64,000 nucleotides of DNA from an uncultured bacterium (GTDB lineage Bacteria; Patescibacteriota; Minisyncoccia; Phycocordibacterales; GWA1-40-21): positions 7,152 to 71,151 of the forward strand of contig CAIKXY010000004.1 in assembly GCA_903831595.1 (NCBI GenBank). Reading direction: 5' to 3'. Below, piece after piece: positions 5,801 to 64,000 of this stretch (position 1 is the stretch's first letter; each line of letters begins with the position of its first letter). The position numbers and the translations under genes were made by a program. The notes under the pieces are model-generated. The model searched no databases. It was not told the origin of the DNA and saw only the letters and a list, made by a program, of their open reading frames with translations.

Positions 5801-6996
5801 AAGAAATAGAACAAGGACTAGCTGAGCAATTTGCTCACTATGATACCGATAAAGATACATTGCAGAACTTATTTGGTGAAAAGATGGAAAAAGATAAAGA
5901 AGTACTTGAATCAAGACCTATGAGTATTTTTGTTTGGGCAAGAAACCCAGATGTAGACCTATATCAAGGTAATTATTCACCTTGTTGTATTTGTATAGAT
6001 AGCGCACATATGGGAGCAGAATCAACAATAGCAGACTACGCTACTGATCTTGGAGTACAGATTGTAAATATCTGGGATGAAACTACAAATAAACCGGTAA
6101 CGGCTGCTTGGTGTTGGATAGGTGAAGATGATGCAGGTAAGCCAGCACTTGTAGTGGACAATGTCGAGTCAAATACTTTGTATAGTTCAAATTATTCTGA
6201 ACAACTCTCAAAAGAGTTACTAGATTATATAAAAGGATACGGAAAAGCTATTGGCATAAATAAAGTAGTACTTGGTAAAGCAAACAACGATTTGCCTAGT
6301 GCAAGTATAATGTCAAAATTGAAAGATAACGAAAAAACATTTACTAAACTTGGTGGTGCAAACCGTGCAGATAGTTATTTCCTTGAAGCTGAAGATGAAA
6401 ATGTAAAAGTAATATGGGATAAAGCAGAAAAAATTGAAAAGAAATCAAAAACTGAAGAAAAAGAAAGAATAAAATTTAATGATATTAGTATAAAATCTAT
6501 TGAAAATACTGATTTTGATTCTATAAAAAAACTAGAGAAAATTATTTACAGTGATGATTTAGCAATAGGTCAAGAAATGATAGAGGAATTGAAACACAGT
6601 AATGGTATGGAATATTCATTTATTGTGGAGGGTGTTCCGGAAGGTAAAACTGAAGTAGAACCTATAGGATATTTGGTTGCCACAGAAGATGAAACAGATG
6701 AGGGTGAACCATGTGTATATTTGGATGACATAGCTGTATTACCAGAAGCACAAAAACAAGGAATCGGTTGGAAAATGTTCAAAAATATAATTGATATATT
6801 AAAAACGAAAGCACAAGCCAAAAACCAACCTATACTCTTTGATATGCACTTGAGAAATTCATCAAGGGAGATGCTGGACAAACACATTAATGACCTAAAA
6901 GCTCTTGGAGTTGAAATGACTGAAGAAGCATTCGTACCTGACCACTATGATGAAGGAGATGATGCGGTGTATAGGGTATATAAGGTTAGTATATAA
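2842..6996 (+). CDS. large multidomain protein: about 15 tandem ~38-40-aa helical repeats, a coiled-coil segment, a Cys-containing domain, and a C-terminal GNAT N-acetyltransferase domain
   Basis: 1,384-aa uninterrupted ORF. Recurrent units resemble F.ISDEIL..P.IQK.AI. The coiled-coil region spans aa 780-960. The C-terminal region contains a GNAT motif A (LPEAQKQGIGWKMFKNII). No signal peptide or TM helix. Confidence 0.6.
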   Translation: MEGGPKNTNELEKQALIDEVVLNLKGGFIDKAYKIIKDKPFADEIIKLPIIQKLATEEMVSKIDYLKFNDAIRVKKIYDIPDKVIESKDIQLSIKKSVFSLLSYSLIFNDNSIRENNKYLPLITNDEIKKEIILKITDAMGHTDLIKQLENIAETFSIPDKIINSPEVQKSAIKSMISNIDIGNFDIFIKIKNKFNISDEILNLNKIYKSVISGVKRCIESNYKDKELAGIIKYFNVPQNEIQKIAIKAMIDTFVSDSKNNEYSEYKKIIKKYSISDEILKKIKTQHEVLDKLLNDDFFQPKLIQKVKEAFFITDETLKSQGVKNIVINSIVNSLADDNVNRFIKIKKAFKISDNELISPDIQQTGLKKIYANFSDNYKGSFSGIINLIEKLSIPDEILNSKEMQRNAIDGIAHKLNDFKEEGSSYILKIIDKFQINDDVLKLPRIQKAAKNAVINCIYYWDSNGALEIIKRFGLSNELLKSSKAQKTIMTSIGLSLSQGFIDTALEIQKKFSISDDIFKLPDMQKYIIDGVTYLLSINHGREIDQVVKMLEKFQINKDILSKMLTEDIISFLVNYGRAPEYVKRIQSLSLSDKLFQSTEIQEVAIQTIINKFKDNKYVDALEIIERLNVEIPIEKLFALLPKFKKLIIEVEKIYPKLKEKIYKSKSSELKYELIKISIKNSDTKEFISAIKDNPFLMDAVDRNEQYGPHLLAKYIEFDGYSKENISMLFDTKKKIMSENPDIDPESVEFRILMQESLMDFKDNKKIIAEIEKSGIKSQEWLNYEETTNFTLNSAEGTLSFAETVQTPLNRIKETIGSYSNKIKEVLKQYIEELKKAQIPIEDASQIQSQIQKMESELEKAKVEGNERKVQGIEKGLLGMRKKLETIKTVSVWEKILSDISGFDMLKNDISSAQEKLTDAENQIYSAMSEKEPSGKKITELKKILGDSKRDFQDKFMMLGKRIANFKESLLDRLSSLGKERAESLIQEIEQGLAEQFAHYDTDKDTLQNLFGEKMEKDKEVLESRPMSIFVWARNPDVDLYQGNYSPCCICIDSAHMGAESTIADYATDLGVQIVNIWDETTNKPVTAAWCWIGEDDAGKPALVVDNVESNTLYSSNYSEQLSKELLDYIKGYGKAIGINKVVLGKANNDLPSASIMSKLKDNEKTFTKLGGANRADSYFLEAEDENVKVIWDKAEKIEKKSKTEEKERIKFNDISIKSIENTDFDSIKKLEKIIYSDDLAIGQEMIEELKHSNGMEYSFIVEGVPEGKTEVEPIGYLVATEDETDEGEPCVYLDDIAVLPEAQKQGIGWKMFKNIIDILKTKAQAKNQPILFDMHLRNSSREMLDKHINDLKALGVEMTEEAFVPDHYDEGDDAVYRVYKVSI

Positions 6997-7055
6997 ATTT
7001 ATAACTTTTAATTCCAATAAATCATTTTTTTACGCATCTCGAGCGTCGCTCGACT

Positions 7056-7129
7056 TGGCTGGGGAACAGGGACTCGAACCCCGATACCATGCGCCAAAGG
7101 CATGTGTCCTACCATTAGACGATTCCCCA
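7056..7129 (-). tRNA. tRNA-Gln (anticodon TTG)
   Basis: Reverse complement TGGGGAATCGTCTAATGGTAGGAC...CTTTGGC...GGTTCGAGTCCCTGTTCCCCAGCCA folds as a cloverleaf. Anticodon loop is CTTTGGC and the 3' CCA is encoded. Confidence 0.85.
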
Positions 7130-7227
7130 ATATTTGAAACGAATTAAGAATACAAGAAAAATCAATATTATTCAAGTTTAATTATAAATATTTGCGATAT
7201 AAAATATTAACTGTATAATCAATTACT

Positions 7228-8022
7228 GTGAATATAATTGAAGTAAAAAATCTTGTAAAAAAATTTGGAGACTTTATCGCTGTTGATAATATTTCTTTTG
7301 ATGTTAAACGCGGAGAAATATTTGCATTTCTTGGACCAAACGGAGCAGGGAAGTCAACAACGATTAAAATGCTTACAACTCTTTTAAATCCAACATCTGG
7401 AAGCTTACTTTTAGATGGAAATAATCCGGTGCTTGATTCCAATAAAGTTAGAAAGTCATTTGGTATAGTTTTTCAAGACCCAAGCCTTGATGATGAGCTT
7501 ACAGCTTGGGAAAATATGGAATTTCATGGTGTTTTATATGACGTTCCAAAGAAATTAAGAAGAGAAAGAATTGAATATCTATTAAAATTTGTGGAACTTT
7601 GGGATAGAAAAAATAGCTTAGTAAAAGAATTTTCTGGTGGAATGAAAAGAAGACTTGAGATTGCTCGTGGGCTTTTGCACCATCCTAAGATTATTTTTCT
7701 TGATGAACCCACTCTTGGTCTTGACCCACAAACAAGAAATCATATGTGGAATTATTTGAAAGAATTAAATAAAAATGAAGGAACAACAATTTTCTTTACA
7801 ACCCACTATATGGAGGAGGCAGAGAAAATTGCCCAAAGGATTTCAATTATTGATAATGGTAAAATTATCGCATCTGGAACCGCAGAAGAATTAAAAACAA
7901 AAGCTAACGCAAAATCACTTGAAGAAGCATTTTTGAGTTTAACTGGTAAAACAATTAGAAATGAAGATACTGGATCAAAAGACAGTATGAGAATGCATCG
8001 TAGAATGTGGACTAAAAGATAA
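7228..8022 (+). CDS. ABC transporter ATP-binding protein
   Basis: Walker A GPNGAGKST, ABC signature LSGGMKRRL, Walker B IIFLDEPT. GTG start. Confidence 0.85.
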   Translation: MNIIEVKNLVKKFGDFIAVDNISFDVKRGEIFAFLGPNGAGKSTTIKMLTTLLNPTSGSLLLDGNNPVLDSNKVRKSFGIVFQDPSLDDELTAWENMEFHGVLYDVPKKLRRERIEYLLKFVELWDRKNSLVKEFSGGMKRRLEIARGLLHHPKIIFLDEPTLGLDPQTRNHMWNYLKELNKNEGTTIFFTTHYMEEAEKIAQRISIIDNGKIIASGTAEELKTKANAKSLEEAFLSLTGKTIRNEDTGSKDSMRMHRRMWTKR

Positions 8023-24025: not shown

Positions 24026-25759
24026 ATGTCATCTTCCGTAGAACAAATAAAAGAAAGATTAAGCATACAAGATGTTGTTGGCTCATATCTAAAATTAGAG
24101 AAAGCCGGCAATAGCTTGAAAGCAAGGTGTCCTTTTCACAATGAAAAGACGCCATCTTTCTTCGTGTCACCAGACAGATCAAGCTATTACTGTTTTGGAT
24201 GCGGAAAAAATGGAGATATTTTTACATTTGTTCAAGAATTCGAAGGAATTGACTTTATTGGCGCATTAAAAATACTTGCAGACAAAGCTGGCGTCACACT
24301 AGAAAAATTCACATCAAAAACGGGCGATAAAAAAGAAAGATTGTATCAGCTCATGGAAGCTGTAACATTATTTTTGCAAAGAAATTTGCAGTCAGAGGAG
24401 ATACCATTAAGCTACTTGAAAAAAAGAGGGCTTAAAGACGAAACAATTAAAAATTGGAGAATCGGCTATGTCCGCGATGAATGGCGTACAATTTCCGACC
24501 ACTTAAAATCAAAGGGCTTCTTAGATGACGAGATTGAAAGGGCAGGAATATCAAAAACTGAAGGAAAAAATACCTATGACAGATTCCGTGGAAGAATTAT
24601 GTTTCCAATTTTTGACAGCGCCAGCAGAGTTATCGCATTTTCTGGAAGAATACTTCACGACGATGGACAGTCCGCAAAATATTTAAATTCACCCCAAACT
24701 GAGCTTTTTGACAAATCAAAAGTTCTTTACGGATACGACAAAGCAAAACAATCAATCAGAAAATTTGATTTCTCAATTTTAGTTGAAGGACAAATGGATA
24801 TTTTGATGGCTCATCAAGCTGGATTTACAAACACAGTCGCATCATCCGGCACCGCGCTCACAAGCGAACACCTATCGCTTCTAAAAAGAATTTCAAATAA
24901 AATAATCATGTCTTTTGATTCCGACAATGCCGGAGCAAAAGCTGCAGAAAGGGGATGGGCACTGGCACTTTCTTGCGGAATGGATGTCAAAATCGCCGAA
25001 ATTCCAAAAGGTTTTGATCCAGCCGATTTAATTTTGAAAGACAAAGAAGAATTCAAAAACACCATTAAATACTCAATTTTCCTTATAGACTTCTTACTAA
25101 ATAGAGTAAAAGCGGAAATATCAGACAAAAAGAAGCTTTGGCAAACAATAAAAACAAAAGTTTTGCCTTACATTTATTTACTAGATGGAAATACCGAAAG
25201 AAGCAGATATGTCAAAAAAATATCTGAAATGATTGATACGAAAGAAGATTTTATTTGGGACGACCTAAAGAAAGTGAAGCTCGACGAAGAATTCCAGCCA
25301 AAAACACAGACGGAAAATAAAACGATTGAGAAACAAATGGGAGAAGAAATATTAAAAAATGGTTCAGTTGAGAAAAATCTTGCCGTAATACTCGCAAAAC
25401 AAGAAAGTTTAAAAATAAACACTTCAAAAGTACAAGAACAAATCAAAAATATTACTGGTGAAGAAAAATTTAATAATTTTCTAAAAGAATACAAAGAAAA
25501 AATAGACGAGTTAACTTTTGAAGCAGAAAATTATTATGGCGATGTAAAAGAAGAAAAATTAATCAAAGAAACAGAATATCTGATCTTAAATCTTCGCGAA
25601 GAATATTTCAAAAAAGAACTTGAAAAACTTCTTATAAATCTAAAAGTCGCAGAGAAAGAAAAAACGATAGAAAAAATAAACGCAATATCAATCCGCTTAA
25701 AAGAAATTATGCAAAAATTGAGTGATATAAAAAAAGAGAAGCATGAATTTTATAAATAG
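24026..25759 (+). CDS. dnaG: DNA primase
   Basis: CHC2 zinc finger (CPFHNEKTPSFFVSP...YYCFGCG) and a TOPRIM domain (EGQMDILMAHQAG...SFDSDNAG). Confidence 0.9.
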   Translation: MSSSVEQIKERLSIQDVVGSYLKLEKAGNSLKARCPFHNEKTPSFFVSPDRSSYYCFGCGKNGDIFTFVQEFEGIDFIGALKILADKAGVTLEKFTSKTGDKKERLYQLMEAVTLFLQRNLQSEEIPLSYLKKRGLKDETIKNWRIGYVRDEWRTISDHLKSKGFLDDEIERAGISKTEGKNTYDRFRGRIMFPIFDSASRVIAFSGRILHDDGQSAKYLNSPQTELFDKSKVLYGYDKAKQSIRKFDFSILVEGQMDILMAHQAGFTNTVASSGTALTSEHLSLLKRISNKIIMSFDSDNAGAKAAERGWALALSCGMDVKIAEIPKGFDPADLILKDKEEFKNTIKYSIFLIDFLLNRVKAEISDKKKLWQTIKTKVLPYIYLLDGNTERSRYVKKISEMIDTKEDFIWDDLKKVKLDEEFQPKTQTENKTIEKQMGEEILKNGSVEKNLAVILAKQESLKINTSKVQEQIKNITGEEKFNNFLKEYKEKIDELTFEAENYYGDVKEEKLIKETEYLILNLREEYFKKELEKLLINLKVAEKEKTIEKINAISIRLKEIMQKLSDIKKEKHEFYK

Positions 25760-25879
25760 TTTGTAAAGGTCAATATTTATTAGCAGTGTGTCATTCCCGC
25801 GTAGGCGGGAATCCAGTGTAAATTAAATTAATACTGGATCCCCGCATCCGCGAGGATGACAAAAATATAATAACAATTT

Positions 25880-27082
25880 ATGAAGAAACACAAAAAAACA
25901 AAGAAAATTTCAAAGGGTAAGCCTAAGGTCAAAAAGACCAAGAAAACCCCTAAAAAGGCCGTTTCTAAGGCCAAAAAGGCACAAAAAACGCCTAAGGTTA
26001 CCTTAAAACAGCGAGATTTGGACCTCAAAGCCGACAAGCTCATCTCAAAAGGACGAGAGCGTGGCTTTATTACCTATGACGAAATTTTGAAAGAATTTCC
26101 AAAAGTTGAAGACGATGTAATGTTTCTTGATGACCTTTACAACAAATTAGTTGTCGCCGGCATAGACGTGCTTGAAGGAGGTGGAATGCTCGAAGTTGAT
26201 GAAGAGCAAATAAAAAAATATTCTACATATGGCACAAGAAGTGCGGACGCTGGCTACGATTCTATCCAAATATATTTGAAAGAAATAGGGCAATATCCGC
26301 TCATCAACGCTTCAATGGAAAAAGATCTTGCAAGAAAAATCCAGCAAGGTGATATGGAAGCAAAAAATCTTCTCGCAAAAGCCAACTTGCGTCTCGTCGT
26401 TTCTATCGCAAAAAAATATGTTGGAAGAAGTGCAGACCTTACACTTTTGGACCTCATTCAAGAAGGAAATCTTGGTTTGTTTAAAGCTGTAGATAAATTT
26501 GACTGGACAAAAGGTTTCAAATTCTCCACATATGCAACTTGGTGGATTCGCCAAGCCATCACAAGAGCACTCGCAGACCAATCAAGAACAATCCGTGTCC
26601 CGGTGCACATGGTGGAAACAATCGCAAAATACAAACAAGTTTTCAGAAGATTGTCACAAGATTTGGGTAGAGAACCTCTTTCAGAAGAAATAGCAACAGA
26701 AATGGGACTTGAAATAGAAAAAGTTTATATGATTGAAAAAATCGACCAAGACACAGTTTCTTTGGAAGCTCCTGTTGGTGAAGATGATGACGGCAAATCA
26801 ACTCTCGGAGATTTTGTCGCGGATGATAAAATACTTTCTCCCGACCAAGAATCTTCAAGAAGAATTCTTTCCGACCAAGTCAAAGAAATTTTGAATGACC
26901 TTTCACTTAAAGAAAAGAAAATTCTTGAAATGAGACACGGTTTGAATGATGGTATCACTCACACCCTTGAAGAAGTAGGCCTTGAATTCGGCGTCACAAG
27001 AGAGCGTATTCGACAAATTGAAGCTAAGGCTCACGAAAAAATAAGACAGCATGAGAAGATAAATCGGCTACAAAGTTATTAA
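25880..27082 (+). CDS. rpoD: RNA polymerase sigma factor RpoD with an N-terminal lysine-rich (histone H1-like) extension
   Basis: Regions 1.2-4 are conserved ([20 protein letters not shown], and the region 4.2 HTH). The first ~55 aa are K/P/A-rich ([25 protein letters not shown]...). Confidence 0.9.
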
Positions 27083-27091
27083 AACAAAAAA

Positions 27092-27117
27092 ACAGCTCAA
27101 AATGAGCTGTTTTTTTA
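27092..27117 (+). terminator. rho-independent terminator after rpoD
   Basis: ACAGCTCA-aaat-GAGCTGT hairpin followed by TTTTTTT. Confidence 0.7.
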
Positions 27118-27150
27118 AATGAATAATAATACAATTATGTTAAAATATAA

Positions 27151-28740
27151 GTGATGAAACAGCTAACCAAAACAGACTTTATACTATATAGAGAATGTGC
27201 CAAAAATGTTTGGATTAAATGGCATATGCCGGAAGAATATAAAAAATTCCCAATTTCAAAATTTGAACAATCTTTGGGTGTGATGGGAAATGAAGTTGAA
27301 AAGCTAGCACGGGGAATGTTTCCAGATGGCTATTTGGTTGAAAAAAGAAGTGAAGGGGCGCAGGAGCTTACGAAGAAGCTGATGCTCGTGCATACGCCCA
27401 TCATATTTCAAGCGGTTTTCAGTACCGACAAGTATTTGGCCGCAACAGACGTCCTAAAATGGAACAAAGAAGCAAAAGCCTACGATTTGTACGAAATTAA
27501 AATGTCTTCCACAGAAGGCGAGAACGACGATGTATTGGAGGATGGTAAAGAGCCTAAGGTCAACAAAAAGAAAGAACTTCAATACGAATACGACTTGGCC
27601 TTTCAAACAAATGTTGCCAAACTTTGCGGTGTAAATTTTAATAAAAAATACCTTGTTCGTTTAAATAAAAAATACAAAAGAGTAGGGGATTTAGATTATT
27701 CAAAATTATTTGAAATTACAGACAAAACAGAAGTCTTAAACGAAACTTTTTTATCAATCGCTCTCACAGAAATGAATTCTGCTTATGAATATTTATCTGC
27801 GAAAAATACACCAATCGGCAGATGTTCTTGTTATTACAAAGGCCGTTCATCACACTGCACATCTTTCAGTATAAGCAATCCTGATGTGCCAACATACAGC
27901 GTTCACGATTTAAATAGAATTGGAAATAGTAAAAAATTGCTTGGCGAATTACTAAATGAAGGAATATTAAAAGTTGATGACGTTCCAGAAGAAATGGTAA
28001 AGCCCAAGAAGGCGAAAAAAGGTGAGGAAGATAAAAAACCAATCAAGCTCAACCAAGTCCGAGTTTATAAAACAAAACAGCCAATAATTGATATTGAAGC
28101 CATTAAAATGGAGCTAAATTCGCTCAAATTCCCCCTATATTTCCTTGATTATGAGACATACCCGACAGCTATTCCGCCATTTAGCGGTTATCATCCATAC
28201 CAGCACATTGTCTTTCAATATTCTTTACATATTTTAAAAAGTAAAGATGCAGAACTTGAACACAAAGAATGTTTGATACTAGAAGGAGATCCTGCAGAGA
28301 AAATCGTTGCAAGCTTGAGAGAAAATATTGGAGATACCGGAAGCGTAATTTCTTGGTATAAAAGTTTTGAAAATTCTAGAAACAAAGAACTCGCGGGGCT
28401 TGTGCCAGAGCAAGCAGAATTTTTGCATTCTGTAATTGAGCGCACTTATGATTTGATGGATATTGTTGATAAGCAGTATTATGTCCATCATGGATTCAAA
28501 GGAAGCTCATCAATCAAAAAAGTTCAGCCAGTAATAGCTCCCAATTTTTCATACAAAGACCTTGATGTTCAAAATGGAACTATGGCGATAGAAGCATACA
28601 GACAAATATCAGTAGGGGAACTCAAAGGCAAGGAAGTGGAAGAAAAAAGAAAACAAATGCTCAAATACTGCGAGTATGATACTTTGATTATGTATAAAAT
28701 TTGGAAATTCTTTATTGATTTGGTGGCTAAGAAAGAGTAA
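27151..28740 (+). CDS. DUF2779-family protein (predicted Cas4/RecB-like PD-(D/E)XK nuclease N-domain plus DUF2779 C-domain)
   Basis: N-terminus reads LTKTDFILYRECAKNVWIKWH with an N-terminal Cys. A Cys cluster follows (CSCYYKGRSSHC). The C-terminal half carries YFLDYETYPTAIPPF...YQHIVFQYSLH, characteristic of DUF2779. Confidence 0.55.
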   Translation: MMKQLTKTDFILYRECAKNVWIKWHMPEEYKKFPISKFEQSLGVMGNEVEKLARGMFPDGYLVEKRSEGAQELTKKLMLVHTPIIFQAVFSTDKYLAATDVLKWNKEAKAYDLYEIKMSSTEGENDDVLEDGKEPKVNKKKELQYEYDLAFQTNVAKLCGVNFNKKYLVRLNKKYKRVGDLDYSKLFEITDKTEVLNETFLSIALTEMNSAYEYLSAKNTPIGRCSCYYKGRSSHCTSFSISNPDVPTYSVHDLNRIGNSKKLLGELLNEGILKVDDVPEEMVKPKKAKKGEEDKKPIKLNQVRVYKTKQPIIDIEAIKMELNSLKFPLYFLDYETYPTAIPPFSGYHPYQHIVFQYSLHILKSKDAELEHKECLILEGDPAEKIVASLRENIGDTGSVISWYKSFENSRNKELAGLVPEQAEFLHSVIERTYDLMDIVDKQYYVHHGFKGSSSIKKVQPVIAPNFSYKDLDVQNGTMAIEAYRQISVGELKGKEVEEKRKQMLKYCEYDTLIMYKIWKFFIDLVAKKE

Positions 28741-28865
28741 TTTTAGTAATTGAAAATATTTATCGGTATGCTAATATTTAATTACCACCCAGTTGTTTGG
28801 GAGTTAGGAAGTGTGTTTACCGGAAAAAACATACTTCAAACCTCCAAAATTGTTGGTTGTATTTA

Positions 28866-28902
28866 AAGAGTCGTTCAGCCGGGTGAACGACTCCTTTTTT
28901 TA
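28866..28902 (+). terminator. rho-independent terminator
   Basis: 10-bp stem GAGTCGTTCA / TGAACGACTC with loop GCCGGG, followed by a run of 8 T. Confidence 0.65.
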
Positions 28903-28953
28903 TGTTAAATATTATTACAATTGCCGAGGCTCTACCTCGGCGAATTATATAAT

Positions 28954-28984
28954 ATTTTTCCCCGAGGTGGAGCCTCGGGGAAGT
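28954..28984. repeat. 31-bp perfect direct repeat, copy 1 (ATTTTTCCCCGAGGTGGAGCCTCGGGGAAGT), containing an 8-bp-stem palindrome
   Basis: Identical to 29371-29401. A related inverted variant, GCCGAGGCTCTACCTCGGC, lies at 28923-28941. Confidence 0.7.
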
Positions 28985-29000
28985 GTGATCAATTGTGTGC

Positions 29001-29028
29001 TTGACAAATATTTTACTTGTCCTATAAT
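29001..29028 (+). promoter_or_regulatory. near-consensus sigma70 promoter (TTGACA-16-TATAAT) with no protein gene downstream on this strand
   Basis: TTGACA at 29001-29006 and TATAAT at 29023-29028. Confidence 0.55.
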
Positions 29029-29034
29029 ATGTTC

Positions 29035-29365
29035 ACGGCAATCGGAGGCGGGTCCGAGCAGTGCACCCATGTTGCACTTGCGAAAAGCCAGTAGTTCTTT
29101 TATTTTTCACGAAGTCAGTCTGGTATTTAATGCCCGCTACATATCCAGACTGATATTTGGGAAAGGGGGAAATGAGTATAACCGGTCATATCTATACTTG
29201 TTTCTCAAACTTATGAAGTATCGGGAGTAGTTTCAAACGGTTGGAACTACTCCTAAGCATTAATATAACGGGCAAACAGGCGACTGTCACCGAGGATAAT
29301 ACCTGTTTGTATGACCAAGTGCTTCAATTAAGCTAGTCACATCGGTGTAGACTAGCTTATTTTAT
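29035..29365 (+). ncRNA. candidate structured non-coding RNA (about 330 nt; identity unknown)
   Basis: Runs from the promoter-predicted TSS to a hairpin plus T-rich tract (GCTAGTC...GACTAGC TTATTTTATT). Contains at least five stable hairpins of 6-9 bp. The termini can pair (GGCAAU with AUUGCC). The longest ORFs inside are trivial. A strong terminator follows at 29407-29437. Confidence 0.35.
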
Positions 29366-60699: not shown

Positions 60700-60890
60700 T
60701 TTAATTAATCTATTAAAAACAAATCGCCCTCGCAAGAACCGAAAATATTTTCGATTTTTGCGAGGGCGAACGAGTCGCGGTGCCACCTCACTTACTTCTC
60801 ATTTATGGGTTCTACTTGCCAAAAGGCTTTCTTCCCAAGCTCCGCTGTTGTTTTCAGCATCAACGCTTATATCTATATAATACAACTATT
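60700..60890 (-). promoter_or_regulatory. T-box riboswitch leader upstream of aspS (T-box sequence plus intrinsic terminator/antiterminator)
   Basis: The minus-strand RNA contains AGGUGGCACCGCGACUCG (T-box consensus GGUGGNACCGCG). An 11-bp terminator stem CGCCCUCGCAA / UUGCGAGGGCG with a 22-nt loop follows immediately, then AUUUGUUUUU, 20-30 nt before the aspS start. Confidence 0.6.
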
Positions 60891-60891
60891 A

Positions 60892-61887
60892 TTAATAAAT
60901 TTCCACTCCCACTTTCTCTCTTACATCCTTCATTTTCTTTTCTGCATTTGCTGATGCTTTTTTGGCACCATTTTTAAGAATTTCAAAAACTGCATCCAAA
61001 TCTTTAGCTAATTTTTCTCTTTTTTCTCGCATTGGTTTTATAAAGGCAGACAAATCTTTTATGAGTAACTCTTTTGCTTCTTTATAACCCATTCCTCCTT
61101 TTTGGTATTTTTCTCTCAAAGTTTTTTGTTTATCTGTGTCCAAAAGTAATTTATGAATTGCAAAAATAATTGACTCATCTGGATTTTTTGATTCAGCCAC
61201 ACCTTTTGAATCTGTTGGAATTTTCATCACCAGTTTTTTTATTTCTTCATCAGTAGCAAAAAGTGGAATTTCATTGTCATAACTTTTACTCATTTTTCTT
61301 CCATCTATTCCAGGAACAGTTTCTACATTAGAAAGAATCAGTGGTTCTGGTAATCTAAAAGTCTCTCCAAAAATTCTATTAAACTTTTGCGCTGTGTCTC
61401 TTGCATATTCCACGTGCTGTTTTTGATCTTGCCCCACAGGAACGATATCTGCATCCTGCATCAAAATATCTGAAGCCATAAGCATTGGATAATCAAAAAG
61501 CCCAACATTTATTTCTTTATTTTTTGCTTCAGCATCTTTGAAAGCATGTGCACGCATCAGATAAGGCATCGTTGTAAGACAATTAAAAATCCAAGTGAGT
61601 TCTGTCACTTGTGGAATATCGGATTGTTTAAAAAGTGTAATTTTCTTTGGATCAAGTCCTATCGCTAAATAATTTAATGCGACATCAATAATCCCTTGCT
61701 TAAGCTCTTCTTTATTTTGGACTGTTGTCATTGCATGATAATCGGCAATAAAAATATAGCTTTCATATTTATCTTGGAGGTCTACCATTTGTTTCATCGC
61801 TCCAAAGTAATTTCCAATATGAACTCTACCTGTTGGTTTAACTCCTGATAAAAGGATTTTTTTATTATTTATTTGATTTATTTTCAT
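60892..61887 (-). CDS. trpS: tryptophan--tRNA ligase
   Basis: HIGH-class motif (SGVKPTGRVHIGNYFGA) and KMSKS. Confidence 0.9.
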   Translation of the reverse strand: MKINQINNKKILLSGVKPTGRVHIGNYFGAMKQMVDLQDKYESYIFIADYHAMTTVQNKEELKQGIIDVALNYLAIGLDPKKITLFKQSDIPQVTELTWIFNCLTTMPYLMRAHAFKDAEAKNKEINVGLFDYPMLMASDILMQDADIVPVGQDQKQHVEYARDTAQKFNRIFGETFRLPEPLILSNVETVPGIDGRKMSKSYDNEIPLFATDEEIKKLVMKIPTDSKGVAESKNPDESIIFAIHKLLLDTDKQKTLREKYQKGGMGYKEAKELLIKDLSAFIKPMREKREKLAKDLDAVFEILKNGAKKASANAEKKMKDVREKVGVEIY

Positions 61888-62110
61888 TAATGTATAATAG
61901 CAAACTTAATTTTTTTTTCAAAGCACAACAATAAACCACTTGTAAAATGAGGAAAGTGTGTTAACATACTACCAGATGGTCCTCTAAATATTTTAAGTGG
62001 AAGACTTATGTTTCTGATTTATTTTTAATTGGAAATATAATCCTTCCACTTAATAAGGATAATAATAATGGTAAATCCCATAAACGTAATCTACTAACAA
62101 GGAGGCTTTT

Positions 62111-63109
62111 ATGTCACAGGTTATTTTGTCAGGTATACGAGCAACCGGAAGACTACATTTTGGTAATTTTCTCGGCGCAGTTCAAAACTTTGTAAAGTTT
62201 CAAGAGCAAATCGATGCTACCTGCATGTATTTTGTGGCTGATTGGCACACATTAACGACCCTTAAGGATCCGGAGGTATTGCGTTCAAACTTGATTGAGA
62301 TGATTAAGGATTATATTGCAGCTGGGCTCGATCCAAATAAGTCAATAATTTATACCCAATCAAGCATTCCAGAGATTGCTGAGCTAGCTTTATATTTGAG
62401 TATGTTTCAGCCAATTAATGAGCTGAACCTTATTCCTACTTATAAAGAATTGGTTCGCAAAAATCCAGATCAGGTGAGTCTTGGACTCCTGTCATATCCA
62501 ATCCTTATGGCAGCAGATATCCTTGGTCCACGGGCAACAATGATCCCCGTTGGAGAGGATCAAATACCAAATGTGGAATTGGCCCGATCACTTGCTCAAC
62601 GTTTTAATCGTCGTTTTGGAGAAATATTTGTAATACCAGAGATGATGGAGCAAATGATAAAAGTTCCTGGTCTTGATGGTAACAAAATGGGTAAATCAGA
62701 TAATAATTCCATTGAGATTGGTGCACCAATGAATATTATTGGTAAGCTGTACATGAAAAAAGGTATTACCGATCCAGAAAGAAAACACTTGATGGATTTG
62801 GGTGATCCTTATAACCGTTGTAAATCAGTTTACGGAATTCATGAGCTCATTACTCAAGATGAAAAAGATCTCCGCGTCATTGCAAACAAATGCATGAAAG
62901 CTGAAATTAGCTGCGTTGAATGCAAAAAGATATTAGTCGAAAGTATCGCAAAGATACTTATACCTTTTCAAGAAAAAAGGAAAGAATTAACTGATAAGGA
63001 TGACTATGTGAGTGAAATACTTTACGAAGGTGGAAAACGAGCTCGTTCAATAATTGCAAAAACTGTAGCGGTTGTTCGAGATAAAATGGGGATCGTTCTC
63101 TACAGTTAG
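62111..63109 (+). CDS. tryptophan--tRNA ligase paralog (TrpRS-II) with a C-x23-C-x6-C-x2-C putative Fe-S motif
   Basis: SGIRATGRLHFGNFLGA and KMGKS motifs. C-terminal Cys motif NRC...(23 aa)...CMKAEISCVECKK. RBS GGAGG. Third-position GC is visibly higher than in neighbouring genes. Confidence 0.85.
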   Translation: MSQVILSGIRATGRLHFGNFLGAVQNFVKFQEQIDATCMYFVADWHTLTTLKDPEVLRSNLIEMIKDYIAAGLDPNKSIIYTQSSIPEIAELALYLSMFQPINELNLIPTYKELVRKNPDQVSLGLLSYPILMAADILGPRATMIPVGEDQIPNVELARSLAQRFNRRFGEIFVIPEMMEQMIKVPGLDGNKMGKSDNNSIEIGAPMNIIGKLYMKKGITDPERKHLMDLGDPYNRCKSVYGIHELITQDEKDLRVIANKCMKAEISCVECKKILVESIAKILIPFQEKRKELTDKDDYVSEILYEGGKRARSIIAKTVAVVRDKMGIVLYS

Positions 63110-63119
63110 AACAAATTAT

Positions 63120-63199
63120 GGCTCCGTCTCAAAGGCGGAGCCATTTTATAAAATGTTTTATTAAAAACCCCCTCATTAAATTGAGGGGGTTTATTTTTA
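63120..63199. terminator. two terminator hairpins (GGCTCCG-tctcaaag-CGGAGCC and AACCCCCTCA-ttaaat-TGAGGGGGTT, the second flanked by A and T runs)
   Basis: Located between the trpS paralog (+) and tRNA-Trp (-). Confidence 0.6.
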
Positions 63200-63203
63200 T
63201 AAT

Positions 63204-63277
63204 TGGCGGACGCGGTGGGACTCGAACCCACGGTACTGGTTTTGGAGACCAGAAGTTTACCACTAACCAACGCGTCC
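63204..63277 (-). tRNA. tRNA-Trp (anticodon CCA)
   Basis: Reverse complement GGACGCGTTGGTTAGTGGTAAACTTCTGGTCTCCAAAACCAGTACCGTGGGTTCGAGTCCCACCGCGTCCGCCA. Anticodon loop CTCCAAA, a 7-bp acceptor stem, and an encoded 3' CCA. Confidence 0.85.
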
Positions 63278-63469
63278 ACACAACAAATGTAATGAAATCT
63301 ATAAATAGATTACACTTTAAATACTTTTTTGTCAAACATAATAAAATGTTATGTATATATTAAAGGGTAAAATTATTTACTACATTGCTTATTTTATAAA
63401 CATATGATAGCATTTTTTTAGATTTACAAAGTACTTTAATATAATAATCTTATAAAAAGGAGACGAAAA

Positions 63470-63985
63470 ATGACAAAGTCTAATTTTCTTTTTGAAGCAG
63501 TCGTTAAAAAGCTTGAATCAAACAAAGTATTTTTTAACATTATTGAACATAAGCCATTATTTATCATGGAAGATGTGTACAATACACTAAATGTTAAGCC
63601 TGAAAAAACAGCCAAGACCATTCTGTTGTCTGTCGATGATTATGGATTAATTGCAGTGGTAGTTCCAGGACTTTCTAAGGTAGATTTAGCTAAGATAGCT
63701 AAATCAATTATTAAACCACGCAATAAAATTAAATTTGCGGAAAAAAAGGAGGTTGAAAAAATAGGGATTTCAATTGGCTCTGTTTCTCCGTTTTTTGATT
63801 GTTTTGCAAAAATGATAGTTGACAAAAGTCTTCTATCACAAGATATAGTTTTCTGTGGGTCAGGTGACCTCAGTAAAACTATTTCTGTCCAAATTCATAA
63901 TTTATTAAAAATCACATCTGCTGAAATAGCAGACGTGATCAAAGACAAACAACCTACAGGAGGAATTGAAAATGAAAACATATAG
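63470..63985 (+). CDS. YbaK/ProX-like aminoacyl-tRNA deacylase domain protein
   Basis: 171 aa. The ...KTILLSVDD..LIAVVVPG...KVDLAKIAK...VSPFF... pattern fits the YbaK/ProX editing-domain fold. Confidence 0.55.
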   Translation: MTKSNFLFEAVVKKLESNKVFFNIIEHKPLFIMEDVYNTLNVKPEKTAKTILLSVDDYGLIAVVVPGLSKVDLAKIAKSIIKPRNKIKFAEKKEVEKIGISIGSVSPFFDCFAKMIVDKSLLSQDIVFCGSGDLSKTISVQIHNLLKITSAEIADVIKDKQPTGGIENENI

Positions 63986-64000
63986 GGATGATGATTGGTG

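Follow-up and report, generated by a model that had tools for sequence, protein, structure and literature searches.

A predicted [4Fe-4S]-type and a cluster-free tryptophanyl-tRNA synthetase side by side in a candidate phyla radiation bacterium

Candidate phyla radiation (CPR) bacteria possess genomes among the smallest known, and two enzymes for one amino acid are notable in such organisms. The 64,000-nucleotide stretch of contig CAIKXY010000004.1 analyzed here, which we call the window, contains two divergently transcribed genes for tryptophanyl-tRNA synthetase (TrpRS), labeled T1 (60892-61887, minus strand) and T2 (62111-63109, plus strand). Our best explanation, in which we place moderate confidence when it is taken as a whole, is that the locus encodes what appear from their sequences to be two functional bacterial-type TrpRS isoenzymes from different TrpRS subfamilies, and that T2, a tRNA-Trp gene, a YbaK-like deacylase gene and the gene of a 321-amino-acid (aa) protein, p321, form a small island. 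The host is a tiny-genome groundwater bacterium of the CPR; the GC content of the window is 33%, and the nearest protein homologs of its genes carry Paceibacteria/Parcubacteria (CPR) names. The comparison loci that we fetched are given as L-numbers (L001 and so on).

Two synthetases from different subfamilies

The divergent pair of TrpRS paralogs reported in a preliminary description of this DNA was recovered exactly, as open reading frames of 331 aa (T1) and 332 aa (T2). The two proteins are 35% identical. Both match PF00579 of Pfam (E 1e-62 for T1, 4e-53 for T2) and exceed the 176.75-bit cutoff of the NCBIfam model TIGR00233 (trpS), with 312.8 and 267.9 bits, respectively; these bacterial families scored best, and the archaeal-type TrpRS models of NCBIfam scored far below cutoff for either protein. 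HIGH-type and KMSKS-type motifs are present in each (TGRVHIGN and KMSKS in T1, TGRLHFGN and KMGKS in T2). We further aligned both copies with the Bacillus stearothermophilus (Bs) TrpRS sequence, which is identical to 1i6k. His43, Met129, Asp132, the GxDQ motif at 144-147 and Lys192/Lys195 (Bs numbering) are conserved in T1 and T2. Because they retain these residues, including the lysines of KMxKS, both look like competent, Trp-specific enzymes.

By sequence and fold, T2 falls within the [4Fe-4S] TrpRS subfamily of the Thermotoga type. Its best match among PDB sequences was TM0492 of Thermotoga maritima (2g36; E 1.6e-72, phmmer), and the same structure was the top Foldseek match (39% identity, TM 0.80/0.83) of an AlphaFold model of T2 of moderate confidence (pLDDT 72.5). 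The coding features of the pair are as follows.

60892-61887, minus strand: T1, cluster-free TrpRS of 331 aa (PF00579, TIGR00233, motifs TGRVHIGN and KMSKS)
62111-63109, plus strand: T2, [4Fe-4S]-type TrpRS of 332 aa (PF00579, TIGR00233, 2g36 as best match)
62819-62923, plus strand: predicted [4Fe-4S] ligands Cys237-x23-Cys261-x6-Cys268-x2-Cys271 in the anticodon-binding domain of T2 (HMMER alignment to the ligand cysteines of 2g36)

The Thermotoga-type cysteine motif proposed for T2 was thus borne out by alignment, with all four cysteines falling on Cys236, Cys259, Cys266 and Cys269 of TM0492. The four cysteines and the KMGKS loop are invariant in 22 CPR homologs of T2, and the motif is present in nearly all of the T2-type genes that we fetched, among them genes from Melainabacteria, Acidobacteriota and Tumebacillus. 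We infer cluster binding by T2 from these predicted ligands. The protein agrees with its family at all but 3 of 135 highly conserved positions, which argues for purifying selection and rules out a decaying pseudogene. T2 and TM0492 are thus alike in the four-cysteine motif, at the same aligned positions of the anticodon-binding domain. They differ in that TM0492 has a KMSKS loop and belongs to a thermophile, whereas T2 has a KMGKS loop and a motif spacing of x23, belongs to a mesophilic CPR bacterium with a tiny genome, is linked to a tRNA-Trp gene and a deacylase/p321 pair, and has a cluster predicted from sequence. The C-x(21-24)-C-x6-C-x2-C motif is found both in genomes that have one TrpRS gene and in genomes that have several, in which case a single copy has it; the cluster has been proposed to read a modified anticodon (Han et al. 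2010, PMC2954223).

T1 belongs elsewhere. Its closest PDB sequences are those of Campylobacter jejuni (3m5w, E 1e-86) and Thermus thermophilus (2el7, E 3e-76), and the cysteine motif is absent from T1 and from every T1-type sequence fetched. T1 resembles the C. jejuni/T. thermophilus-type enzymes in being cluster-free, in its canonical KMSKS loop and in its placement in a neighbor-joining (NJ) tree; it differs from them in forming part of a CPR-specific clade and in its probably leaderless mRNA (see below). T1 homologs are common in Paceibacteria, with identities of 91%, 86%, 85% and so on down to 76% within the first 120 matches, and the nearest relatives by T1 are L004 (91%), L092 (86%) and L091 (85%). 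Downstream of T1, the window shares with these three a backbone of aspS, HIT, scpA, scpB, S11 peptidase, mraY, ftsW and murG; upstream of T1, the three carry dnaK, dnaJ and variable genes, with neither T2 nor a tRNA gene within 6-10 kb of T1. T1 is the syntenic housekeeping TrpRS of the lineage, and its GC content at third codon positions (GC3), 0.208, is host-like.

Both TrpRS types have thousands of homologs, the closest of which are all from the CPR. In the NJ tree they form separate deep clades, T1 with C. jejuni and T. thermophilus and T2 with T. maritima. Counting one genome per GTDB species, T2-type genes were found at 56 CPR loci with 54-70% identity to T2, followed by non-CPR genes at 38-45%; among 5.8 billion proteins searched, T2 has no homolog that exceeds 70% and p321 none that exceeds 73%. 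At 8 other species-level loci, T2 has a T1-type gene within 8 kb (in tandem in L069, divergently in L050 and L055), and such pairs also occur on further metagenomic contigs. Other pairings were seen as well. At L029 a third TrpRS type stands beside T2 (6825-7817); it lacks the cysteine motif, is ~35% identical to T1 and to T2, and groups with 6ncr of Chlamydia. At L022 the companion of T2 is a second, divergent TrpRS copy with the cysteine motif (6042-7025, 49% identity). That a genome may hold several TrpRS genes, one of them with the Fe-S motif, is already known. The new elements here are the CPR-wide link of T2 to tRNA-Trp and an island whose translation signals look foreign. Our literature search found no paper on a double bacterial-type TrpRS in CPR.

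The tRNA-Trp gene and the island around T2

Downstream of T2, the following features lead up to the end of the window.

63120-63142, plus strand: GC-rich hairpin just past the stop codon of T2, with ATTTTAT behind it, a probable T2 terminator (read from the sequence)
63165-63192, no strand assigned: terminator hairpin of 11 bp (6 GC) with T-runs on both sides, read as bidirectional (plus-strand scan and sequence)
63204-63277, minus strand: tRNA-Trp(CCA) with G73 discriminator and encoded CCA (ARAGORN; Rfam, 61.7 bits)
63470-63985, plus strand: YbaK/ProX-like free-standing aminoacyl-tRNA editing protein of 171 aa with its own Shine-Dalgarno (SD) site (PF04073, E 3e-19; weak YbaK similarity)
63972-64000, plus strand: start of the p321 gene (321 aa), cut by the window end, with an SD site AGGAGG at 63958-63963 (full gene at L008:3866-4831)

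The adjacency of tRNA-Trp to T2 that had been described is right and recurs across the CPR, although the gene is convergent with T2, lying 94 nt past it on the opposite strand. Being on the minus strand and separated from T2 by two hairpins, it is not co-transcribed with T2. The first of these hairpins (63120-63142) was absent from the results of the consensus terminator scan. To quantify the linkage, we counted tRNA genes in 645 kb of sequence flanking the 56 CPR T2 genes. These flanks hold 18 tRNA-Trp genes against 14 tRNA genes of all other kinds, and tRNA-Trp occurs in the flanks of 17 of the 56 loci. In 6 of the 50 loci with sufficient downstream flank, it lies at most 300 nt downstream of T2, usually in convergent orientation. 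A genome of roughly 1 Mb holds about one tRNA-Trp gene (an estimate rather than a measured value), and on that basis the excess near T2 is on the order of 20-fold. The T1-only loci of close relatives have no nearby tRNA gene (3 of 3). We conclude that tRNA-Trp adjacency is a conserved property of the Fe-S TrpRS type. Metagenome scans with patterns derived from the window tRNA gave no match to the tRNA-Trp of the relatives without T2. At L034 two tRNA-Trp(CCA) genes adjoin each other.

The editing gene is syntenic with T2 in L001, L006, L069, L093 and L097-L099. Directly upstream of it, ~90 nt (63385-63469) are 73-74% identical to L006:1809-1898 and L069:3803-3892; besides the tRNA gene, no other non-coding stretch nearby shows conservation in other genomes. 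The promoter and leader of an operon of the editing gene and p321 probably lie here. In all loci seen, p321 follows the YbaK-like editing gene, and in P0265 the two are fused. p321 belongs to a small CPR-only family in which we found 87 proteins, none more than 73% identical to it, and it lies within 8 kb of T2 at 16 of the 56 CPR loci; two loci picked from the p321 side have no TrpRS gene within 10 kb. It has no match in Pfam and no sequence match in the PDB. A confident AlphaFold model (pLDDT 91.6) gave weak fold matches to the class I S-adenosylmethionine (SAM) methyltransferases EgtD, PRMT and CmoA (TM ~0.4), by which p321 may be called methyltransferase-like.

The island genes also stand out by their translation signals. 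SD sites precede all 3 island genes (T2, the editing gene and p321) and none of the 43 other genes of the window. The canonical ribosome-binding site attributed to T2 was confirmed as AGGAGG at 62100-62105, and of the 45 window genes scanned only 2 have an SD-like motif; in relatives, the corresponding numbers were 1 of 15, 2 of 19 and 0 of 22. Judged from the 45 window genes and from L004, L091 and L092, the lineage is nearly devoid of SD motifs. In many window genes a TATAAT-like box stands 5-10 nt ahead of the start codon, and this suggests that mRNAs are widely leaderless in this lineage.

GC3 is 0.315 for T2, 0.301 for p321 and 0.244 for the editing gene, compared with a window mean of 0.23 (sd 0.05). 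The higher GC3 noted for T2 is therefore real but not extreme (z ~1.6, rank 4 of 48). In L001, L093, L097 and L099, T2, p321 and the editing gene are all GC3-rich, while T-box-regulated genes between them are host-like and T1 follows the host. Elsewhere in the window, a run of genes at 24026-29230 has GC3 values of 0.29-0.46 and includes dnaG and a 139-aa open reading frame without a Pfam match (GC3 0.46), so T2 is not the most GC3-rich gene of the window. We considered whether the island had been cleanly inserted between dnaJ and trpS1 and rejected this, since the next gene after p321 in L008 is not dnaJ, nor is it the aminotransferase of the L097-type blocks; the island region is rearranged, not simply inserted.

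The 223-bp length given for the spacer between T1 and T2 proved correct, and the spacer carries candidate signals for both genes.

61888-62110, no strand: divergent intergenic spacer, 223 bp (from the open reading frame coordinates)
61894-61921, minus strand: T1 promoter-like site TTGAAA-16-TATTAT with TG, ending 6 nt before the ATG (consensus scan, 10/12 matches)
61993-62053, plus strand: imperfect hairpin upstream of T2, with 27-nt arms at 61993-62019 and 62027-62053 and a 7-nt loop (RNA folding)
62100-62105, plus strand: T2 SD site AGGAGG (sequence)

As the promoter-like site of T1 ends 6 nt before the ATG, the T1 mRNA is probably leaderless; the TGTTAT(T/C)AT box that T1 carries 6 nt ahead of its ATG is conserved, lying directly upstream of the T1 orthologs in L004, L091, L001 and L006. 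Back to back with this site is a weaker promoter candidate for T2, read by eye and below the scan threshold (TTGTAA at 61940-61945, a 16-nt spacer, and TGT-TAACAT ending at 61967). The hairpin that had been described in the spacer is real and larger than stated, the noted repeat being part of the structure with 27-nt arms. As plus-strand RNA the spacer folds with z = -3.5, and none of 200 shuffles was as stable (minus strand, z = -0.9). The hairpin occurs once in the window. As no U-tract comes after it, it is not an intrinsic terminator. It probably lies within the T2 5' leader. The regulatory role suggested for it is conjecture: it may affect the stability or translation of the T2 mRNA, but it belongs to no Rfam family, was not matched in the upstream regions of 22 other T2 genes, and among the fetched loci is unique to this genome. 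The spacer as a whole found no blastn homolog in the other fetched loci except on contigs of the same organism. A known RNA in the spacer was also sought, and the Rfam scan returned only a junk miRNA match; with no T-box (RF00230) match in 61888-62110 at E up to 1, T-box regulation of trpS was ruled out.

The only T-box match in the T1/T2 region of the window is the leader of aspS, a reduced element at 60712-60872 (minus strand; 30 bits, E 4.6e-4) between the T1 stop codon and the aspS start at ~60693. Its box, GGUGGCACCGCG, precedes an intrinsic terminator made up of CGCCCUCGCAA...UUGCGAGGGCG and a U-tract. Its Stem I is ultrashort, with a terminal loop AAAACAA that contains AAC, an Asn codon, and the same element lies upstream of aspS in L004 (7670-7783). 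T-box leaders also occur beside T2 in relatives, at L093:4556-4754 (plus strand, 59 bits), L006:5613-5836 (minus strand, 42 bits) and L069:7607-7830 (minus strand, 40 bits). One of these heads an operon of TrpB-like PALP, TrpD-like and BtpA genes, and the others head an ELFV-dehydrogenase/aminotransferase operon divergent from T2. All three carry a candidate UGG (Trp) specifier, as UUGGG, in the 3' internal loop of their Stem I; given these adjoining operons, T2 and tRNA-Trp in relatives lie in an apparent tryptophan-supply neighborhood. A literature search for T-box riboswitches in Patescibacteria found no paper.

Lateral or vertical origin of the island

The preliminary description had suggested that T2 was acquired horizontally. 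We consider it plausible, and moderately probable, that the island is of lateral origin, acquired or re-acquired from another CPR lineage. The SD sites, the GC3 excess shared by T2 and p321, the want of closer homologs of T2 (>70%) and p321 (>73%), and the fact that the three closest relatives analyzed (L004, L091 and L092) have no T2 next to T1 speak for acquisition, although they fall short of proof and point to no donor. Because every close homolog of T2 is from the CPR, any transfer took place within the CPR, and the sequences do not support a transfer from Thermotogae or any other non-CPR donor. Carriage of T2 by phage was tried as an explanation and dropped, as a scan of viral contigs confirmed no relative.

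The alternative, which we regard as possible but on the unlikely side, is that both copies descended vertically from an old Paceibacteria ancestor with T1 and T2, that the island was repeatedly lost in streamlined genomes, and that GC3 and SD sites are features of the genes themselves. Both TrpRS types are indeed widespread in the CPR, and the T1/T2 pairs at 8 other species-level loci span T1 identities of 48-77%. Identities to L069-type genomes are coherent (T1 77%, T2 70%, p321 69-73%, editing gene 62-66%). Several further observations weigh against lateral origin. There is a weak correlation between the T1 and T2 distance matrices (Mantel r 0.39, p 0.025). The T2 genes of L069, L006 and L013, with which T2 forms a loose group, come from genomes that also have a T1 at 76-77%, which fits vertical descent with loss. 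The GC3 excess of T2 is found in many hosts, and since it persists where the T2 proteins are 30% diverged, it could reflect a gene-specific constraint and not a foreign origin. SD sites could be no more than a mark of those few genes that have leaders in a mostly leaderless genome, and the host lineage does use SD at a few genes, such as clpP in L004. Finally, once more taxa are included, the placement of the window T2 (WIN_T2) is unstable: its best sister group has 50% NJ bootstrap and its terminal branch is twice the median, and because of this unstable long branch a donor is not identifiable.

Vertical descent, on the other hand, requires many independent losses among the ~80 clusters of closer T1 relatives. 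T1 relatives at 80-85% identity lie on several near-complete contigs of 550-730 kb, and none of the 87 members of the p321 family comes from these contigs. The T1 genes of L042, L050 and L055 form a tight clade, yet their T2 genes are as distant from one another as from any other T2. WIN_T2 is ~2.7 times more divergent from the T2 of L069 than the usual ratio of T2 to T1 distances predicts, and the contrast in SD sites between the island (3/3) and the rest of the window (0/43) also weighs against this reading. We retain acquisition from another CPR lineage as the preferred origin of the island.

Possible roles and known systems

Under our working model, T1 and T2 would both charge the same tRNA-Trp. 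T2, as an Fe-S enzyme, would be active under anoxic, iron-replete conditions, and the cluster-free T1 would keep charging going when the cluster is oxidized or iron is scarce. T1 would be constitutive and T2 accessory, with its own leader, and tRNA-Trp would be transcribed independently. Such a division of labor by redox state or iron is modeled on other enzymes that exist as an Fe-S and a cluster-free isozyme, such as the class I and class II fumarases (PMC6831887), and this reliance on analogy counts against it.

We also weighed more specialized roles. T2, tRNA-Trp, the YbaK-like deacylase and p321 may be a dedicated module and not a plain backup, for example one that has a proofreading function of its own and charges a tRNA-Trp bearing a special modification, which we hold to be distinctly improbable. 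The recurrent linkage of T2 to tRNA-Trp, the presence of p321 near T2 at 16 of 56 loci, the fusion of p321 to the editing domain in P0265, the SAM-methyltransferase-like fold suggested by the p321 model, and the proposal of Han et al. (PMC2954223) that the cluster reads a modified anticodon are all consistent with it. The fold matches of p321 are weak, however, the two loci picked from the p321 side are without TrpRS, and the tRNA-Trp is canonical (G73, CCA anticodon), with no evidence of a second tRNA-Trp in the window-scale view of the genome. A more far-reaching version, which we consider quite unlikely, is that the four genes are a laterally mobile Trp-decoding module among the CPR that carries translation signals of its own into hosts poor in SD sites, with T2 specialized, for example, for charging gated by redox state or for reading a tRNA-Trp modified by p321, with dedicated proofreading. 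Second TrpRS copies with an antibiotic-resistance role exist in Streptomyces, and T2 (or T1) could be a resistance or self-protection enzyme of the kind known from actinomycetes, whose auxiliary TrpRS resists indolmycin or chuangxinmycin. T2 is accessory in its lineage, as this would have it, but the role, which the preliminary description had raised, is very improbable: both copies retain His43 and Asp132, which bind indolmycin in BsTrpRS, H43N being the known resistance change. There is, moreover, no biosynthetic cluster nearby, the neighbors being genes for a tRNA and a deacylase and, in relatives, for amino-acid metabolism, and the T2 type may be the sole TrpRS in some CPR and non-CPR genomes, as far as 8-kb flanks can tell. 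A resistance role of second TrpRS copies has previously been raised as a possibility (PMC5370408). Leaving these alternatives, the shared charging of one tRNA-Trp by a cluster-free and a predicted Fe-S enzyme remains our working model.

Comparison with known systems places the pair more precisely. Deinococcus radiodurans TrpRS II and the Streptomyces auxiliary TrpRS likewise are second, divergent enzymes beside a housekeeping copy. An identity of T2 with the Deinococcus enzyme, which had been cited earlier as a precedent, is not upheld: 2a4m and 1yi8 are not among its top PDB matches, 2a4m (E 1.6e-46) falling far behind 2g36, and T2 is without the N-terminal extension. Unlike those second copies, T2 keeps His43 and Asp132 and has no stress-gene or antibiotic-cluster context. 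A parallel within the CPR is the operon of TrpRS-A and tRNA-Trp(A73) in Microgenomates, which is archaeal-type and always accompanied by ORF1 (Mukai et al. 2017, PMC5370408). There, too, an extra TrpRS is linked to tRNA-Trp, sometimes followed by a bacterial TrpRS, and some TrpRS-A2 members have a four-cysteine motif like that of T2. Whereas that system is archaeal-type, with A73 and an operon, both enzymes here are bacterial-type, the tRNA has G73, and its gene is convergent. No ORF1-like gene is annotated near T2, p321 not having been compared directly with ORF1.

As two TrpRS genes, one of the Fe-S type, had already been published, the gain is incremental. The pairing of T1 and T2 nevertheless suggests that Trp charging is a weak point in these organisms, perhaps through the sensitivity of the Fe-S enzyme to O2 or iron. 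The role of the TrpRS cluster has been a question since 2010, and natural pairs of Fe-S and cluster-free enzymes acting on one tRNA offer a clean comparison. The link between T2 and tRNA-Trp, together with the foreign-looking signals of the island, also bears on the movement of core translation genes between CPR lineages.

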